The notes under the pieces are model-generated. The model searched no databases and was not told the DNA's origin. It was given only the letters and a program-made list of their open reading frames with translations. Made by a program: the position numbers and the translations under genes. Of a stretch of DNA of 64,000 nucleotides, positions 1 to 10,439 are shown piece by piece. The stretch is taken from the NCBI GenBank assembly GCA_039818205.1, contig JBCBUK010000011.1, positions 86,013 to 150,012 of the forward strand, given 5' to 3'. Numbering within the stretch: the stretch's first letter is position 1; each line of letters begins with the position of its first letter. Source of the DNA: Verrucomicrobiota bacterium (lineage in GTDB: Bacteria; Verrucomicrobiota; Verrucomicrobiia; Opitutales; Cerasicoccaceae).

Positions 1-1434
1 GTTTCCATCGAGAAGATTGAAGACCGGGTGACCGTGGTCATGGTTGATCCTGATGATGCCAAAAAGCGTGACTTTTTGGAGCAGGCATTGAAACCGCTCA
101 AGCCTGAGTTTGCCGCGACAAATGCCGACGATATGGCTCGCTTTATTGACCGCATGTCCGCTCATTGCGGATATCGGTCCAAGCCGCCCGCTGCGGTTGA
201 GTTGGATTTTCGGGGGCCGGACGGTCAGTCCGTTGAGGTCTCGCAAAACGAGGCTGCCAAGGTGCTGCGCAATGCATTGCGTGAAGCCATCACGCTCAAG
301 GCCAGTGACGTACACTTTGAGCCCAAGCGGGTGGGTATGGATGTCCGTGCGCGGATCGACGGCAAACTCCTTGCCTTGCATGGCGATGTGCCGAGCGCGA
401 TTGTCCGCCAAGTCATATCGATGATCAAGGTGCTGGGAAACTTGGACATCGCTGAGCGACGATTACCCCAGGATGGCAACTTTGTGATCAAGGTGGATGA
501 CCTGGAGATCGATGCCCGACTATCGATCATGCCGAGTCAGCATGGTGAGAAGGCTGTGATGCGTCTGCTGGATCCGCGAGCACAGCTGCACTACCTCAAC
601 CAGCTCATTTCCAGCGATCCGGTTTTAGCATTAGCGAAGGAACTCTTTACGCGTTCCGCCGGATTGACCCTGGTCACGGGGCCAACGGGGTCGGGTAAGA
701 CGACCACGCTCTATGCCGGGTTGCGCAGCATTTGGGAAGATAATCGTTTGCTGAACATCGTTAGTGCGGAGGATCCGATCGACCAGCGGTTGGACTTCGC
801 CACGCAAACACAGATTCAAAACCTGGTGGGTCTGGACTTTCCGACCGTGTTGCGCGGGCTATTGCGGCAGGACCCAGACGTCATCTTGATTGGTGAGATT
901 CGCGATAGTCAATCAGCCTCAATTGCCTTGGAGGCGGCCATCACTGGACACAATGTTTTATCGTCGCTGCATACGAAACACGCGACTGATTCTGTTGCTC
1001 GCCTGCGCAAGTTGGGTGCCGAGCCTTACCTGATTGCCGCGGCGCTGAATGGCGTGATTAGTCAGCGACTTTTGCCACGCTTGAACCCCAATGCTTGTGA
1101 AAGTGTTCCGGCAGACGATCCTGAGATAGCCCGTCTGGTGGGTATCGATATTTTGGCGGAAACCACAGATGCGCTGCGCCGCGGAGTCCAGCGAACGCCA
1201 GATCAGAAGCCGGAAATTGGCCGCGTTGGCCTCTATGAGATCATGGCGGTCACGGCGGCGGTACGGGATGCGATTGAAGGCACCGCCACCAGTCAACAGC
1301 TCGAAGCACAGCTGACGCCGCAAAACTTTATCAGCATGAAACGTTATGCACGCTTCCTATTGCTCGAGCAAGTGGTCTCGCCGGATGCGGTGCTAACCGT
1401 CTTTCCGGAAAGTCCGGAAATCGCCGAATTTTAG
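1..1434 (+). CDS. GspE/PulE/PilB family secretion or pilus ATPase (5'-truncated by the window edge)
   Basis: Frame open from base 1; ASDVHFEP, LDIAERRLPQDG, Walker A GPTGSGKT, LRQDPDVILIGEIRD, His-box TGH..LSSLHT. Confidence 0.9.
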   Translation, partial: VSIEKIEDRVTVVMVDPDDAKKRDFLEQALKPLKPEFAATNADDMARFIDRMSAHCGYRSKPPAAVELDFRGPDGQSVEVSQNEAAKVLRNALREAITLKASDVHFEPKRVGMDVRARIDGKLLALHGDVPSAIVRQVISMIKVLGNLDIAERRLPQDGNFVIKVDDLEIDARLSIMPSQHGEKAVMRLLDPRAQLHYLNQLISSDPVLALAKELFTRSAGLTLVTGPTGSGKTTTLYAGLRSIWEDNRLLNIVSAEDPIDQRLDFATQTQIQNLVGLDFPTVLRGLLRQDPDVILIGEIRDSQSASIALEAAITGHNVLSSLHTKHATDSVARLRKLGAEPYLIAAALNGVISQRLLPRLNPNACESVPADDPEIARLVGIDILAETTDALRRGVQRTPDQKPEIGRVGLYEIMAVTAAVRDAIEGTATSQQLEAQLTPQNFISMKRYARFLLLEQVVSPDAVLTVFPESPEIAEF

Positions 1435-3955: not shown

Positions 3956-4657
3956 TTACTTGGAGAGCTCGTCGAGCGTTGGAAGGTCGTCGCCGAGTTG
4001 GATGTCCCACTCATCAACTGCTTCGTCGCCAGTCGGTGGGCCATTCTTGCTGGAGTTCTCGAGGATGTAACCGTTGAGCTCCCGATCGAGAATGTTTTCC
4101 GCCCAGTATCCGTTCTGCAACTCGTAGTCGTCTGGCTCATAGCCATACTTTTCCAAGGTTGCTAGGATGATGGAGGAGTCCGGTGTGCCACCATGGTCGG
4201 TGATGAGACCCTTTTCGCGGTGGATACGCACACTCTCGTGGACGATGAATGGAGGAAGCTTTTCCTGATAACTTGGGTGAACCTTGTGGCTCGCTGCCCA
4301 CTTGGCCCAGGCGTCACGGTCAATCGATCGCTGAGTCTGGGTGAGTGCTTCGTAATAGTAGACGCGGCGTTTGGACAGCTTTGTAACGAGTGCGATCAAC
4401 GACATGCCGTCTTGTTCGATCTCCAGCCAGTCCAGTGGACGAGGCTTTTCGATCGGGTCGCGGCTCTTGGAGATGTCTTCGGGAGCCTCGAGGAACTGGA
4501 CACCGAGAGCACGAGAGAATTTGACAGTCGTTTCCCCATCCTTCTGGAGTGTGACCTTGCCCTTATTCACCATGTCCTCGTGGAACTTACGGGCGTCCTC
4601 CGGTGATTCCGCCCATATGTAATTGGTAATGCGGGTAACAACCTTGAATTTTCTCAT
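3956..4657 (-). CDS. Hypothetical protein (233 aa)
   Basis: Long ORF with protein-like composition, AAGGA upstream and its own terminator; no family recognised. Confidence 0.7.
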   Translation of the reverse strand: MRKFKVVTRITNYIWAESPEDARKFHEDMVNKGKVTLQKDGETTVKFSRALGVQFLEAPEDISKSRDPIEKPRPLDWLEIEQDGMSLIALVTKLSKRRVYYYEALTQTQRSIDRDAWAKWAASHKVHPSYQEKLPPFIVHESVRIHREKGLITDHGGTPDSSIILATLEKYGYEPDDYELQNGYWAENILDRELNGYILENSSKNGPPTGDEAVDEWDIQLGDDLPTLDELSK

Positions 4658-5306
4658 AACCGTATCCTTTGATTGAACTTATAAAATCTAACGAACGAAT
4701 TCGGGGTGTAATTAAGTTTTTTTTAATATCCGTTGGAAACGCTAGAGTCCTGATTTTGTAATTTCAACCTCTTTTTGTTCACCATCGAAGGTACCGAGTG
4801 TTCCACCCTCTGTGAATTCGACAAAGTTTAAGATCGCCATCGCCACTCCACGTAAAGGATCGCGGCGAGATTTTGACAAAATTTTCCCGAAAATTAAAAT
4901 ATACATTTGTTTACTGACTGCCCGAAACGTCAATGCTGATCGGCTAGGCAGAATACCCGTGTTGATTTGGGATTGTCATTTTTGTTTTTCAGGGAGCGTA
5001 TGTGCACTGCGGTAGAGTGAGTTTTGCTGGCGTCCAGTTGGCTGATAAAAAATATGTGCTCCTGAATAAAATTTCATTTAGAAATTTCGAAGTTGATCGA
5101 TAAATCTCACCTCGAGAGACATTTCGACAGCCAAGATATTGTTTCCTGGAAGCCGTGACTTGACTTGCTCGCCAATGTCTCAATATGTCGTTGCTGCAAG
5201 AGGCGGTTACCCCGTCTTGATCAGCTAGTATTTTGAAGGTGAAAAGCTTGCATTCATCTACAGATAACCATTCTATTGCAGATCACCCGTTTAACTTCTC
5301 TTTTTT

Positions 5307-6197
5307 ATGCCACGTAAAATTTGTTTTCTGAATTATAAAGGCGGCGTCGGCAAAACTTCGCTTATCGTTAATACCGCGGCCTGTTTGGCCCATAAAGGTA
5401 AGCGCGTCTTATTGTTTGATTTTGATACTCAGTCTAACGCCAGCATCTGGTTGATGCGTCTCGATCGTTGGAATAAGTTGAATATTAATGGCTCTGGATC
5501 GGTTTACTCGATTTTTGATCCGGGCAAAGAGACGATTAAAGACAATGTTGTTAAAAACGTTGTCCAAAGCAAAACAGGTGAAAAAGTTCTCCCTGGTTTG
5601 GACATCGTTCCGACGACGTTCAATCTCGTTGACCTCGAGAATGAGTTTAAGGGCGACCCAACCAGTCCGCACTACCGCGTGGTGCATGACCAGTTGGAAG
5701 AAATCCAAGACGATTATGATTTTATCGTTTTTGACTGCCCGCCAAACATTCTGAACGCCTCGCAATGCGGCGTATTTACCAGCTCCGAAATTTATGTCCC
5801 GTCGAATCCGGACGCCCTCAGTTTGATCGGTTTTACACTCCTTGTTGAAAAATTACTCCTTTTTCACAAGCGTTCAGCGAGCTTCCGTAAATCGGGCATG
5901 GGTCCGCCTGCTGCGGTTCGCGGTATCATCTTTAACTCGATTAAAGCCAACGTAGATATTGAGGTGCCCAAGATGCGTATGCAGTTGCGTATGAATCAGT
6001 TCCGTAATCAACGCCGGGTTGCTCAGGATGCTAAGATTTTTGAATCAATGATTCGTGATGCCACGGTTGTTCGCCGGGCTGTTACCCTTGGTCTACCGGT
6101 AAGTCTAGTTGGTCAAGCCGCTCAAGAGGAAGACAGTGTGGTCAAGGACTATGCTCGCCTCGCTGCTGAGATTGACCGCCATGCGGTTTCTTGGTAG
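5307..6197 (+). CDS. ParA/MinD/Soj family ATPase (orphan, no adjacent parB)
   Basis: Deviant Walker A NYKGGVGKT, DFDTQSNAS, DFIVFDCPP. Confidence 0.9.
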   Translation: MPRKICFLNYKGGVGKTSLIVNTAACLAHKGKRVLLFDFDTQSNASIWLMRLDRWNKLNINGSGSVYSIFDPGKETIKDNVVKNVVQSKTGEKVLPGLDIVPTTFNLVDLENEFKGDPTSPHYRVVHDQLEEIQDDYDFIVFDCPPNILNASQCGVFTSSEIYVPSNPDALSLIGFTLLVEKLLLFHKRSASFRKSGMGPPAAVRGIIFNSIKANVDIEVPKMRMQLRMNQFRNQRRVAQDAKIFESMIRDATVVRRAVTLGLPVSLVGQAAQEEDSVVKDYARLAAEIDRHAVSW

Positions 6198-6253
6198 GGT
6201 TCGTAAAATTTGACTAATTCAATTTACGGAGGGACCCTAAGATTACACCTAAT

Positions 6254-7240
6254 ATGTCAGAGGAATCGCCAACGATACGTTATAACAGAGACGACTGGGA
6301 TGAAATCCGGTTGACCTTCGCTACCTCCTTGATGGTGGACACGAATCTGGTCAGCTTGTCACAGAATTTGGAAATTGAAGAGTGGCCGCTTCGCGGAGCT
6401 GGCGAAACACCTTCAAAATACATCGACTTCGCCTGGGAAGAGCTTCAAGAGCTGCCTGGTTTGGCGGATGACCCGCATCGGATTGATCTTCTGGTCCACA
6501 TCCTTCGTGAGACTCAGGCGTTTGATGACCCATTTGGGGACATGGTTGCAACGGTTGATGCACACGCCAGTGTCGATCGTACTCTTGAGAAGAATATCAA
6601 TCGTCTCAAGATTCCGCAGGATTTCCCAATGTCATTGAGCGGTTTGTCGGCAGACACGCTTACCTTCTGCCGCAACGAGGATATCAAGACCTTGAAGGAC
6701 TTTGGCCACTTCGCGCAAAACATGGCGCAGAATATCGTGATCGGTGGCGACTTCCGGGCTTTGCTCAATGCCCTCACCACGGAAGACCAACAGTCGCTGG
6801 CGAAATACATTCCGTTCCGCCCTGGTCATTTTGGTCTGCACCTTGCGGAGAGCATTGGTTTGTTGCTCAATCAATTGAGTGATGTTGAGAAATTTTCTCT
6901 CCTGAAGAAATACGGTTACTCGCTCGATACCGTTCAAGAAGCGAAGGCTCGCCTTGGCAAAGACCAGGTGCGCCAGCTCGAAGATATCTTGCAGGAGAAA
7001 GCCGGGGAAATTTGCCAATATTTCCCCGACCAATACCGCCAGTTGTCCCGCGATATCAAGTCCGGGAAGACGATGGAGCGGGTGTTCATGGTTGTTGATG
7101 ACCCCGAGCGTGAAACTATCTGTGCGAACATTGCAACTCGTTACCTGAAGGAGAACGTCGTTGATGATCGTGAAGAAGTCGCTGAATCCGCTGGTGCGAA
7201 AAAGGGCGGGTTCTTCTCGAGAATTTTTGGACGTAAGTAA
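6254..7240 (+). CDS. Hypothetical protein with alpha-CTD/HhH-like segments and a C-terminal amphipathic helix
   Basis: 328-aa ORF; LSGLSADTLTFCRNEDIKTLKDF resembles RNAP alpha-CTD; ends KKGGFFSRIFGRK. Confidence 0.7.
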   Translation: MSEESPTIRYNRDDWDEIRLTFATSLMVDTNLVSLSQNLEIEEWPLRGAGETPSKYIDFAWEELQELPGLADDPHRIDLLVHILRETQAFDDPFGDMVATVDAHASVDRTLEKNINRLKIPQDFPMSLSGLSADTLTFCRNEDIKTLKDFGHFAQNMAQNIVIGGDFRALLNALTTEDQQSLAKYIPFRPGHFGLHLAESIGLLLNQLSDVEKFSLLKKYGYSLDTVQEAKARLGKDQVRQLEDILQEKAGEICQYFPDQYRQLSRDIKSGKTMERVFMVVDDPERETICANIATRYLKENVVDDREEVAESAGAKKGGFFSRIFGRK

Positions 7241-7258
7241 TCGCCAAGTGGCGAAACA

Positions 7259-7852
7259 ATGGCATCTCCAATTCCACCAAAGAAGAAGCGGGCGATTAGT
7301 CTCCGCCCGAAGTTGCAAGAAGCGGCTGAAGCGTCATTGAAGTCGAAGGAAACCATCGACCTCATCATGCGGCGAACGAGGGCTCCTTTTCAGGACAATG
7401 AGCGTATGCCGAATGAAGAGATTGACGCGTTGGAGAAGAGTTTGCGCAAGCTCGAAAGCGATTTGCTGGAGCGCGAGCGCAAAGTCGCCGATTACGAAGC
7501 GAAGCTGACCGAGCGTGAACGCAATATCTGGGAAGGCGAGGCCCTGTTGAAGGTCAAAGAGGAGATGCTTGCGGCCAAGGTCAAAGACTTTGAACAATCC
7601 CGAGAAGATGCTCCTGATCAGCAGCAGGTATCACCGCAAGAGCGTGAGGCTCTTGATCACTTGCGTGAGACGCTTGAGGAACGTGAGGCTACCTTGCAGC
7701 GCTTAAAGGAAGAAATTAAAGAGCGCGAATCGTTCGTCGAAGAGTCGGAAAATGCACTCTTCGAGAAAATGATGGAGCAGCAGGAGAAGGAAACGGAGCT
7801 GGAGCAGCGAAGCGAAGAGCTGCGGGTGTTGCAAAATAAAGTAAGCGAGTAG
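7259..7852 (+). CDS. Coiled-coil protein with a basic N-terminal peptide
   Basis: E/K/R/L heptad-rich; N-terminus MASPIPPKKKRAISLRPKL. Confidence 0.75.
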   Translation: MASPIPPKKKRAISLRPKLQEAAEASLKSKETIDLIMRRTRAPFQDNERMPNEEIDALEKSLRKLESDLLERERKVADYEAKLTERERNIWEGEALLKVKEEMLAAKVKDFEQSREDAPDQQQVSPQEREALDHLRETLEEREATLQRLKEEIKERESFVEESENALFEKMMEQQEKETELEQRSEELRVLQNKVSE

Positions 7853-7877: not shown

Positions 7878-10439
7878 CTATTCGTCTACCGGAATATTCG
7901 CGACATCATAGCTGATGTCGAAGCGGATAAATAGACGCGCGCCCTTCACAAACCGAGCCTCAACCAAATCGTAAAACGGTCCGGTGAAAACGACCCGATA
8001 ATCGTCTTCGAACGGCATGAAGTTGACTAGGTCGGTCGAGTATTCGACGTGATATCCGAGCAGCGGATAATTCTTTCGGCGTTCGAATTGAAAACCGAAG
8101 GTCGTGCTCGTTACTTCGAATGCGGGAAACTCGGTTGAGCGAGTGGGATGCCCATCGATGGCAAACTCTGCGAGATTTGAAAAAGAATCGCCGTCGGGAT
8201 TCGAATTCGGGTCGGTGTAGAAGGGGTCGTTGAGTTGCTCCGGGGTTAGGCGTAACTCCAGCCACGGTTGATATGCCGCCAAGCCCATTATGGCCGTTAT
8301 AATGGTCCAATTTTCTTCAAAGTTGGATAAAACGGTGCCGTCGAAGCTGACGGTGTCCTGAGATTTTAGCGTTCGAAAAGCGATTCGAAGGTCGTAGGTG
8401 CCGATGGGCTCAAGAGCATTGCGCTCGATAAAGCCACTCAACCCATCGTCAGCAATGTTGATGAGGTCTCCCGAGTAGACGAGTTCGTCGTTGGTTCGGT
8501 CAGTGGCAGTTACCGATACCGTGGTGTTAGGCCCAGAGGCATCGAACCCCGTCCAGGCGACGGGAACGGGAAGCGACGGGTCGAATATCGTTTGGCTTAG
8601 GTAAGTCGTATCGATCTGCGTCGCTGGAAACGTTGTGCTAGTTCCGCCGGGTTCGAGGCGAGCGCTTGAGGGGCCCCCGCCGACGGTTTGGGTGACGTTG
8701 AACCGGTAGAAATCGTCGGGCCAGGCAGTGTCCAGGTCCTGTTCGGTATCAAAGCTTTGTTCGAGCTGCCATCGATCGCCAGTGGGAACCAGGCGCTGGA
8801 GACTGCTCACCGGAGCGCCATTTACGTCTCGTTTGATGCTGGCAGCCGAAAGGGCCCCTTGGGTTGATTCAACGATTTCCGCTGTGAATGAAAAGGGTTG
8901 GTCAGGTGCGTCGATCCCGTTGCCATTGTCGAAGTATTCGCCTCGTATGAGCCGAGCTTCGGCAATTCCGTCAAGGGTTGTCGGTGTGGTTCGAACCGGG
9001 AATTCCGTAAATGTCGCGGCGCGAAACACAATTTTCTCTGTGGATCCAATGGTGCTGGTGTCGCGGGTTTCGATACTGCCTTGATAGAGGGTATCGGGCT
9101 GCAGGCTGTTGGCGGAAATTTGGGCTTCGAATTCGTTGGTTCCGTCGGGAACGTTCGCGAATCGAGAGGCTACCACATCACCATTTTGGTTTTTAATTTG
9201 GATGAGGGCTTGGAGGACTCCGGTGCTACCATCAGGACGCTGAAATTTTATCTGGAAGCTGCGTCGGCTTTGAATGTTCTGGCATGCCTCCCAATTAACC
9301 ACAGCGGTTGGTCCGGTGCTTCGTTCGGTCGTCGATTCTCCAAAAACCGACGCAGTGGTGCCGTCGGTGTTCCGCAAGCCCGCGCTAAAAAGACCGTCTT
9401 GGATGTCGGCCGTCGCGGCTCCGTCTAATTCGAAGCGATAGGTGTCCGGCAGAACGGGATCTGGAACCGGTTCGAGCGTGAAGGTCTGCCCAGTATGGAG
9501 TTGGTGGAGCGCGACCGCGGAAACGCCTTCTTCGACGGATCCATCGTAAGTAACGGTGAAAGTATCCTCGTCGGGGATCTCAACCGGGTCGCCGGCGGTG
9601 TTTTGCTCAAACCGCCGCCCCCAGATGACATTCAGGGTCTCTGCGAATCGATTTGCTACGACGTTTTGTGTTTTGATGACAAACCAGGTTTCGCGGATAA
9701 AACGGCTTTGCGTTTCATATTCATTGAACGCGCTGGCCTCATTGATTCTATCTGGGCTGACGAATTGGATGCGGGCGAGGTACTCCCGATTTGCGGTCAA
9801 AGTCCCCGGTGGAATCTGGTAATTCCCGGTAAACTGACTCAGGTTGGATTGCTCGTGGACGACGGCTAGCGTGACTGGGTCAAAGACGGTAAAGTTGTGA
9901 AAATTCTCAAGACCAATGCCGCCCGAGGATCCGCCCGACGTCTGGCTGAGAACTAGGATGAGCGTCGTATTGACGCTGTAGTTCTCAGCATTGAAAAAGT
10001 TGCTGATGTTAGGAAAGGCCATAAACGGGTCGAATCGGCCAAAATTGATCGTCGATGTCTTCGTCGTTTGAGCGTTCAGCGTGGTTAGGAACTGATATTC
10101 AACCGTTGGGGGAAATGTCAGATTGAGCGAGTTTAGTGTGGTCGCCCCATAGAAACCCGACCAGCGAGTCGGCGTTTGAAGCGTGAAGGGATAATCCGTG
10201 AAATTTGCCTCGAACTCCGCACTCACCAAATTGGTGGATTGTGCGATATCGAAAAAGTAGCGCAGGAAAACGGGATTTTGGGCGGGGATCGTGCTCGCTC
10301 CATTAGCCTCCTGGTATGCAATCTCCTTTTTTTCGACGATGAAACCCTCAAGCGGCTCTTGACCGTTGAGGTGGATTGACGCCAAAGCGAAAAGCACTGT
10401 GAGGGCGAAAGTGCGCATCATAGTCGGGAGAAATGGCAT
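7878..10439 (-). CDS. Large secreted protein with three internal repeats and a DxDGD-containing C-terminal module
   Basis: Signal peptide MMRTFALTVLFALASIHLNG; beta-rich repeats; C-terminal NPDGDSFSNLAEFA...YHVEYSTDL. Confidence 0.75.
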   Translation of the reverse strand: MPFLPTMMRTFALTVLFALASIHLNGQEPLEGFIVEKKEIAYQEANGASTIPAQNPVFLRYFFDIAQSTNLVSAEFEANFTDYPFTLQTPTRWSGFYGATTLNSLNLTFPPTVEYQFLTTLNAQTTKTSTINFGRFDPFMAFPNISNFFNAENYSVNTTLILVLSQTSGGSSGGIGLENFHNFTVFDPVTLAVVHEQSNLSQFTGNYQIPPGTLTANREYLARIQFVSPDRINEASAFNEYETQSRFIRETWFVIKTQNVVANRFAETLNVIWGRRFEQNTAGDPVEIPDEDTFTVTYDGSVEEGVSAVALHQLHTGQTFTLEPVPDPVLPDTYRFELDGAATADIQDGLFSAGLRNTDGTTASVFGESTTERSTGPTAVVNWEACQNIQSRRSFQIKFQRPDGSTGVLQALIQIKNQNGDVVASRFANVPDGTNEFEAQISANSLQPDTLYQGSIETRDTSTIGSTEKIVFRAATFTEFPVRTTPTTLDGIAEARLIRGEYFDNGNGIDAPDQPFSFTAEIVESTQGALSAASIKRDVNGAPVSSLQRLVPTGDRWQLEQSFDTEQDLDTAWPDDFYRFNVTQTVGGGPSSARLEPGGTSTTFPATQIDTTYLSQTIFDPSLPVPVAWTGFDASGPNTTVSVTATDRTNDELVYSGDLINIADDGLSGFIERNALEPIGTYDLRIAFRTLKSQDTVSFDGTVLSNFEENWTIITAIMGLAAYQPWLELRLTPEQLNDPFYTDPNSNPDGDSFSNLAEFAIDGHPTRSTEFPAFEVTSTTFGFQFERRKNYPLLGYHVEYSTDLVNFMPFEDDYRVVFTGPFYDLVEARFVKGARLFIRFDISYDVANIPVDE

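Follow-up and report, generated by a model that had tools for sequence, protein, structure and literature searches.

A conserved gene module of the Opitutales with an orphan ParA/MinD-type ATPase, a probable positioning system

Organization of the parA locus

We analyzed a stretch of 64,000 nucleotides from a bacterium of the phylum Verrucomicrobiota (order Opitutales, family Cerasicoccaceae), which corresponds to positions 86,013 to 150,012 of the forward strand of contig JBCBUK010000011.1 (assembly GCA_039818205.1) and is called the window in the following. The source genome is designated G000 and its contigs carry C-numbers; the window lies on C11. Three open reading frames on the + strand, located at 5307-6197 (296 residues), 6254-7240 (328 residues) and 7259-7852 (197 residues) and separated by 56 and 18 nt, encode a ParA/MinD-family ATPase (gene 1, parA), an acidic protein with a putative membrane tail (gene 2) and a coiled-coil protein (gene 3). 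These three genes are a conserved, vertically inherited module of the order Opitutales, and it is highly likely that they constitute a dedicated positioning module of a ParA-type ATPase and its partners. In a preliminary description of the window the three co-oriented genes, their gaps, the terminal residues of their products and an AT-rich spacer of about 650 nt in front of them had been reported. The gene layout and the termini proved to be exact, the spacer measures 649 nt and the gene order is conserved, but a divergent gene at 4657-3956, here called 'up', which is part of the module, had been overlooked. The features of the locus are as follows.

3956..4657, - strand: 'up', accessory fourth gene, 233 residues, no known family; 12 of 12 copies adjoin the ATPase gene
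4658..5306, no strand: divergent intergenic region, 649 nt, 40.5% GC compared with 53.9% for the window
5238..5251, + strand: site with sigma-54-like spacing (GG-N10-GC), 55 nt upstream of parA, kept only within the genus
5307..6197, + strand: parA (gene 1), ParA/MinD-family ATPase of an Opitutales-specific clade, without a membrane tail
5850..6077, + strand: segment of the ATPase covering residues 182-257, basic (at least 80% K/R) at 12 positions
6254..7240, + strand: gene 2, core partner, 328 residues, isoelectric point 4.9; helical, with several domains and an amphipathic tail at the C-terminus
6605..6781, + strand: domain of gene 2 (residues 118-176) resembling the C-terminal domain of the RNA polymerase alpha subunit (alpha-CTD); VIA-align to 1z3e_B, Z 4.7 (middling)
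6875..7021, + strand: degenerate helix-turn-helix of gene 2 (residues ~208-256) resembling sigma-70 region 4, aligned to Sigma70_r4 of P0226/P0261
7199..7237, + strand: C-terminal helix of gene 2, amphipathic and basic as in MinD, predicted to target the membrane
7259..7852, + strand: gene 3, 197 residues; N-terminus rich in Pro, Lys and Arg, followed by a long coiled coil
7280..7312, + strand: basic K/R-x-L-x-L-x-R-type motif near the N-terminus of gene 3, a candidate for a peptide that stimulates the ATPase
7721..7786, + strand: most conserved coiled-coil segment of gene 3, common to response-regulator and GYF-domain proteins in module-positive genomes

Conservation and inheritance of the module

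The main sample consisted of 131 Opitutales genomes, all of them at least 90% complete. Related genomes are not independent, and the counts given here show how the module is distributed and should not be read as statistical tests. The ATPase was detected in 45 of the 131 genomes and gene 2 in 44, all among those 45; the remaining genome (G133) has a truncated ATPase without a gene 2 behind it. The neighbourhood survey suggested in the preliminary description confirmed the conservation of the triad. Gene 2 was present in 22 of 41 relatives, and the order parA-gene 2-gene 3 was found in all 22 loci. A scan of GTDB revealed 346 relatives, and among the 79 loci returned parA was present in 78 and gene 3 in 76; three of the misses were located at locus ends and one locus had a divergent coiled-coil gene. 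This arrangement is far beyond chance. The wider flanks of the module vary between families and consist mostly of housekeeping genes.

The main copy of the ATPase is 60-94% identical in nearly all carriers, and a quick tree of the ATPases was clustered by family, with 16 label changes compared with a mean of 44 after shuffling. Using a sample of 251 genomes of the phylum, we found ATPase matches of at least 57% in 32 genomes of the order; outside the Opitutales the best matches reached 31-32%, in three genomes and with no gene 2 adjoining. The named sequences most similar to gene 2 come from Cerasicoccus (80-81%), Rubellicoccus, Lacunisphaera and Oleiharenicola, where they are annotated as hypothetical proteins. 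The fixed core of the module is the ATPase with gene 2, and gene 3 and 'up' are accessory, because no gene 3 was detected in 5 of the 44 gene-2 genomes and the gene is unlinked in others, and 'up' is present in 12 of 131 genomes.

A defence or mobile-element module, with gene 2 as an RNA polymerase decoy for phage proteins, would be compatible with the patchy presence of the genes within families and with a distant gene-2 homologue that heads a protein of 1601 residues. However, PADLOC 2.0 gave no match for genes 2, 3 and 'up', and its match to the ATPase covered the P-loop only. Searches with gene 2 in plasmid and phage databases gave no match, and the family-clustered tree, the ATPase identities and the mostly housekeeping flanks also argue against such a function, which we consider extremely unlikely.

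The ATPase is related to ParA but distinct from Soj and MinD

Gene 1 was assigned to the ParA/MinD family by Pfam (AAA_31, E 3e-34) and stayed below the cut-off of every NCBIfam equivalog, with 33.5 bits for MinD (TIGR01968), for which 212.9 are required. Residues K11 and K16 of the deviant Walker A motif as well as D38, D40 and D143 are invariant in 60 ATPase sequences, when the motif definition of PMC9178275 is applied. The structural model (predicted local distance difference test, pLDDT, 94.1) is closest to ParA 8ray_A (Z 30.5, root-mean-square deviation 2.2, 253 residues aligned), and further matches were obtained with McdA (Z 26.7), pNOB8 ParA (25.6), MinD (25.2) and FleN (8p53, 24.3). 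A strict pattern for a MinD-type tail matched 0 of 60 ATPase relatives, in line with the earlier description of gene 1 as a ParA/MinD ATPase without a C-terminal tail.

In the quick tree, which has long branches, the ATPases of the module form a clade separate from Soj, and the genome contains a separate Soj, ParB, two parS-like sites, SMC and FtsZ at other places. The reading of the triad as a dedicated module apart from the Soj system of the genome is supported, and the suggested check for a separate ParAB system and a missing Min system gave Soj, ParB and parS elsewhere in the genome, with MinD found in none of the 131 Opitutales genomes. Neither ParB nor parS was found at the module locus, and MinC and MinE did not occur among the module neighbours, although no family search was made for either. 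The Soj gene (C8:94097), the ParB gene (C9:154604) and the parS-like sites (C10:32126-32174) of G000 lie on three contigs and do not form a parAB operon. The genome also has a third ParA-family gene (C7:36387-37136), located after two genes that resemble CYTH- and CHAD-type proteins by eye.

Residues 182-257 of the ATPase comprise 12 positions with at least 80% K/R, compared with two conserved acidic positions (D217 and D251). According to the alignment, the Arg positions of the Soj from the same genome in this region correspond to N215, D251 and V254 of the module ATPase; we take these Arg positions to be the DNA-binding ones of Soj, and a search in PMC9178275 gave no confirmation of their numbering. 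Because the Soj Arg positions are replaced and 12 other K/R positions are conserved, the binding surface appears to be basic but remodelled, and it is a candidate surface for either DNA or the acidic gene 2.

A basic C-terminal face of this kind could also belong to a tether between nucleoid and membrane or to a second segregation aid, in which the ATPase, bound to DNA, would attach to gene 2 at the membrane and help to spread or anchor larger chromosomes. The restriction of the module to genomes of at least 2.5 Mb would suit this function, but many genomes of 3-5 Mb are without the module. In addition, the genome has Soj, ParB, parS and SMC apart from the module, the Arg positions of Soj are replaced in the ATPase, and the fusions with signalling domains described below would be left unexplained. 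We therefore judge a tether to be very unlikely.

Gene 2 is a tailed, acidic protein with domains related to the transcription machinery

A net negative charge was found in 89 of 90 gene-2 relatives. The strict MinD-type tail pattern was present in 58 of these 90 proteins, compared with 4 of 2647 genome open reading frames of at least 250 residues; a looser pattern, for which there was no control, matched 84 of 90. By analogy to the C-terminal helix of MinD, which serves as the precedent for membrane binding (PMC9178275), gene 2 is predicted to be attached to the membrane via this tail. The earlier designation of gene 2 as a membrane anchor is consistent with the conserved tail, but it is too narrow, as the protein additionally contains an alpha-CTD-like and a sigma-4-like domain.

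The structural model of gene 2 reached a pLDDT of 89.7 and a predicted template modelling score of 0.64. Residues 118-176 were aligned to the alpha-CTD of RNA polymerase (1z3e_B) with a Z score of 4.7, a root-mean-square deviation of 3.0 and 58 of 67 residues aligned, which is a weak score taken alone; three more alpha-subunit or RNA polymerase entries occurred among the top 22 structural matches of these residues. The first domain is alpha-CTD-like by eye only, and its top structural match (Z 5.1) is uninformative. Foldseek gave no match for gene 2 at E 0.001, a profile search of the PDB gave 0 matches, and feature searches in the Atlas yielded no usable hit.

A profile search with gene 2 in 1.84 billion proteins gave 259 hits, and 22 long or distant hits were scanned with Pfam. 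Among these 22, P0226 and P0261 matched Sigma70_r4 (P0261 with E 4e-10) and, below the cut-off, RNA_pol_A_CTD. Comparison of P0226 with the gene-2 family using hhalign covered 285 columns (99.6%, E 1.7e-23), and the reverse search from P0226 recovered gene 2 in 30 of 251 genomes, with E 1.6e-13 in G000. The genomic context of P0226 was looked for and not found. At the Arg columns of the sigma-4 recognition helix, K or R is found in 47%, 10% and 7% of the gene-2 family. According to these profile comparisons, gene 2 is homologous to proteins with alpha-CTD and sigma-region-4 domains and has lost most of the DNA-reading arginines. From this loss in the recognition helix and the net negative charge of nearly all members, we infer that gene 2 is a protein-binding scaffold and not a DNA binder.

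Several unusual forms of gene 2 were observed in the databases. P0184, one database protein from a single contig, appears to be a fusion of gene 2 with the gene-3 coil. P0139, P0207, P0223 and P0261, each from one contig, comprise a form in which the first domain is duplicated, two forms that are long and acidic, and the 1601-residue protein mentioned above; the latter has no known function and contains intact alpha-CTD/sigma-4 domains at its N-terminus.

Gene 3 combines a basic N-terminus with a coiled coil that recurs on other proteins

The basic motif of gene 3 was present in 24 of 28 aligned gene-3 sequences (two at spurious places), compared with 442 of 2647 control open reading frames, and the first 40 residues were net positive in 26 of 28; the motif is missing in some members. 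Partners of ParA/MinD ATPases are described to act via basic disordered N-termini (10.1101/2022.06.09.495121 and PMC7993993), and the motif of gene 3 fits such activating peptides. A gene-3-type hit was obtained in 41 of 131 genomes, namely in 39 of the 44 gene-2 genomes and additionally in G133 and G091 (broken gene 3); the hits in G103 and G133 are paralogues. No gene-3-type coil was detected at E 1e-9 in the 85 genomes without any part of the module. Because 5 of the 44 gene-2 genomes gave no gene-3-type hit and the gene is unlinked from the module in others, its peptide cannot be a universal activator. The preliminary description of a basic-tipped coiled coil was thus correct for the motif and the coil, but not for a general role of the tip as the activating peptide.

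The best-conserved part of gene 3 in the alignment is the C-terminal coil, and this part recurs on other proteins. G000 contains five further coil proteins (C17:33381-34457, C6:107262-107858, C4:185681-186325, C2:220744-221355 and C6:81457-81954), of which two have receiver domains and one is GYF-like by eye only. In relatives, fusions of the types receiver-coil, GYF_2-coil and receiver plus sigma-54-activator AAA domain plus coil were found. The gene-3 coil is an unannotated domain family that is common to several signalling proteins.

In two genomes (G086 and G064; L114:4498-5763 and L118:4531-5793) the third gene encodes a single-pass membrane protein. The one from G064 is weakly similar (E 6e-5) to a Roadblock/TPR/FGE-domain protein of G000 (C2:221977-223899), whose gene is divergent to that of a gene-3-coil paralogue.

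The AAA-coil fusions and the ancestry of gene 2 could also indicate a control of gene expression similar to FleN/FleQ, in which the ATPase would tune proteins of the sigma-54-activator or receiver type via the coil, and gene 2 would sequester or mimic RNA polymerase contacts at the membrane. The homology of gene 2 to alpha-CTD/sigma-4 proteins, the receiver and AAA proteins that end in the gene-3 coil, and the presence of FleN among the fold matches agree with this idea, as does the sigma-54-like site upstream of parA in this genus. This site was identified with a consensus that we assume to be that of sigma-54. It was present in 6 of 6 loci of the same genus, in which the intergenic region before parA is about 400 nt long, but in 9 of 125 upstream regions overall, which equals the background of 7% (193 of 2625), and an order-wide control of the module by sigma-54 was rejected at this background level. 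Promoter and terminator scans at the locus were at chance level. Gene 2 is moreover acidic and has lost most of its recognition-helix arginines, the AAA-coil fusions were without a DNA-binding Pfam match, most of the receiver-coil proteins examined were without an AAA domain, and the closest fold of the ATPase is ParA, ahead of FleN by 6 Z units. Taken together, a role in expression control is quite unlikely.

The 'up' gene and paralogous modules

The gene 'up' always adjoins the module ATPase in the 12 genomes that carry it. It is divergent in the window and co-oriented directly upstream of parA in families f32 and f33, and it gave no match in Pfam, NCBIfam, PDB or Atlas. Genomes of family f33 carry two modules. 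The first consists of parA and a tailed gene 2 (6 of 6 loci fetched), with gene 3 located elsewhere in 3 of 3 genomes tested. The second consists of 'up'-parA and a gene 2 without a tail (6 of 7; G322 is without gene 2) and is mostly preceded by genes for a Ser/Thr kinase and a multi-pass membrane protein, the latter heading the gene run. The homologue of this membrane protein in G000 (C11:72336-73358; L209:2337-3359) is located outside the window at a distance of 18 kb and matches Bac_rhodopsin (E 3e-5; PDB E 9e-4). The retinal lysine was found in none of the aligned members. This opsin-fold protein occurs in 11 of 131 genomes, all of them module-positive, has a conserved N-terminal peptide and is encoded by two genes in G138.

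Proposed mechanism and candidate cargo

In the proposed mechanism, the ATP-bound dimer of the ATPase would bind nucleoid DNA or the acidic gene 2 through its conserved basic face. The tail of gene 2 would hold the protein on the inner membrane, where the alpha-CTD-like and sigma-4-like domains would bind protein and not DNA. Hydrolysis of ATP would be stimulated by the basic peptide of gene 3, in the manner of partner peptides from other ParA/MinD systems, and proteins bearing the gene-3 coil would co-assemble with gene 3 and form the cargo. The coil-bearing proteins are candidates for the cargo because the same coil would let them co-assemble with gene 3. Tentatively, and with somewhat less than an even chance, this cargo may be a coiled-coil signalling hub that is linked to type IV pili and placed at a defined site of the membrane.

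At least two PilT-family genes were present in 43 of 44 gene-2 genomes compared with 24 of 87 others, with 14 candidates scored per genome. A PilT/PilB-type or PilC-type gene was directly adjacent in 5 of 18 loci of coil paralogues. Pilus genes including PilT are reported for Opitutaceae isolates (PMC7251102).

Several observations weigh against a positioned hub of this kind. Among the listed module-free genomes of at least 2.7 Mb, 15 of 31 also have at least two PilT-family genes, and carriers and non-carriers of families f2, f5, f31 and f32 show no difference in PilT; genome size and kinship are thus confounders of the PilT excess. Two of the five pilus-adjacent coil-paralogue loci (G138 and G030) had been chosen for their proximity to PilT, which leaves an unbiased count of 3 of 16 from two lineages, compared with a rough estimate of 1-2% per gene for a pilus-type neighbour by chance, and G119 and G061 belong to one family and have a pilC-type gene without an adjoining pilB or pilT. 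PilM did not track the module, in a result that depended on the threshold, and G000 had no MglA-type motif. No conserved cargo gene was detected in the flanks of the module, the five gene-2 genomes mentioned above gave no gene-3-type hit, and six extra ATPase copies have no gene 2 next to them, although every genome concerned has a paired copy as well. Overall, the evidence points modestly to a signalling hub tied to pili.

In a more specific version, the acidic membrane-bound gene 2, and not DNA or lipid, would be the positioning matrix of a single signalling pole that determines the place of type IV pilus action. One shared coil would then address response regulators, GYF adaptors and former sigma-54 activators to it, and the lysine-less opsin and the Ser/Thr kinase could serve as inputs in some lineages. 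We regard this version as unlikely.

Two PilT/PilB-type genes of G000 were observed in addition. A PilB/GspE-type ATPase is encoded 3.9 kb upstream of the module (window 28-1434; full open reading frame C11:85488-87446). Its N-terminal extension looks like a cyclic-nucleotide-binding domain, and its place next to the module is not conserved in relatives. A PilT-family ATPase of 622 residues (C2:412192-414060; L235:3193-5061) with a long N-terminal extension is located upstream of a second pilT and has a short basic hydrophobic C-terminal tail that resembles that of gene 2.

The divisome had been named as a possible cargo in the preliminary description. As a division-site selector, the ATPase would move a membrane-attached cluster of gene 2 and gene 3 over the nucleoid to mid-cell and mark the site of the FtsZ ring or promote its formation. 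The absence of MinD from all 131 genomes and the presence of FtsZ in all 44 gene-2 genomes would agree with such a function, and the single copy and slow evolution of the module suit a core function of the cell. The layout of gene 3, a coiled coil preceded by a basic N-terminal peptide, is also similar to that of PomX (PMC7993993). However, FtsZ without MinD was also found in 62 of 87 genomes lacking gene 2, and for this reason the divisome is not favoured. Furthermore, G079 has a normal module and a very divergent FtsZ, no division gene is a conserved neighbour, one family has two paralogous modules, and the coil common to response regulators would be left unexplained. The probability of division-site selection is thus low. 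FtsZ was not found in 25 of 131 genomes, many of about 1 Mb, and is very divergent in family f5 (G079, G019, G099 and G115).

Further candidates were rejected. Flagella are not a universal cargo, since FliG was not found in G000 and G030 but was present in the carrier G036 and in two non-carriers. Microcompartments were dismissed because PF00936 was not found in G000, G036 and G030. Chemosensory arrays as a universal cargo were rejected as well, with CheW in two of five carriers and the che cluster of G000 on another contig. MreB was present in 5 of 5 genomes tested, carriers and non-carriers alike. The chemosensory cluster of G000 (C6:137850-149903) comprises three CheW-domain hits, a CheA-like kinase and receptors, in a genome in which FliG was not found. 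Downstream of the module, a gene on the - strand (window 7878-10439) that converges on gene 3 encodes a secreted-looking protein of 853 residues with a weak fibronectin-III match; its place is not conserved.

Comparison with described systems

Like PomXYZ of Myxococcus xanthus (PMC7993993), the module combines an orphan ParA-type ATPase with two partners, one of them a coiled-coil protein with a basic peptide at its N-terminus. It differs in its core partner, which is folded, alpha-CTD/sigma-4-like and equipped with a membrane-type tail, and in gene 3, which is sometimes missing or unlinked. PomX and PomY have no Pfam or NCBIfam link to the module; the Pom sequences were not compared directly. 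With MinCDE the module shares the MinD-type C-terminal amphipathic helix, but here the helix is on the partner and not on the ATPase, which is far below the MinD cut-off and closer to the ParA fold. With ParABS/Soj it shares the fold and the catalytic motifs, and Soj/ParA are the closest solved structures, but the ATPase forms a separate long-branch clade, the module locus is without ParB and parS, and the Soj Arg positions are replaced. An orphan ATPase that is connected to its cargo by a partner of its own is also described for McdAB, ParC/ParP, PpfA and FlhG/FleN (10.1101/2022.06.09.495121 and PMC9178275). The cargos of these systems do not fit, as G000 is without a microcompartment shell gene and FliG and three other carriers gave no CheW.

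Receiver proteins with coiled coils of the RomR and FrzS type localize to the cell pole and control pili or motility. The module resembles HubP of Vibrio and RomR and FrzS of Myxococcus as a membrane landmark that would recruit motility regulators, a comparison by the partial descriptions available and not by homology. It differs in that gene 2 is without a transmembrane helix and that no MglA-type motif was found in G000. The module resembles a ParA/MinD cargo-positioning system, yet by these features it does not belong to MinD, Soj, McdAB, FlhG or ParC. No earlier description of the module was found in the literature searched, which was mostly outside subscription journals and excluded supplements, and this literature also contained no described positioning system for the Opitutales.

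Significance for the Opitutales

The Opitutales are frequent inhabitants of soils, fresh waters and the sea, and the order has cultured members. For this order, in which no Min system was detected (MinD in none of the genomes), the module is a concrete and testable candidate for a positioning system. If the proposed mechanism is true, it would represent a new type of ParA/MinD partner, in which the membrane tail has been shifted from the ATPase onto a scaffold derived from the transcription machinery. The analysis also exposes the gene-3 coil as a putative unannotated 'address' common to several signalling proteins. Either a pilus and signalling pole or a division site as the target would, if true, explain the spatial organization of these cells.

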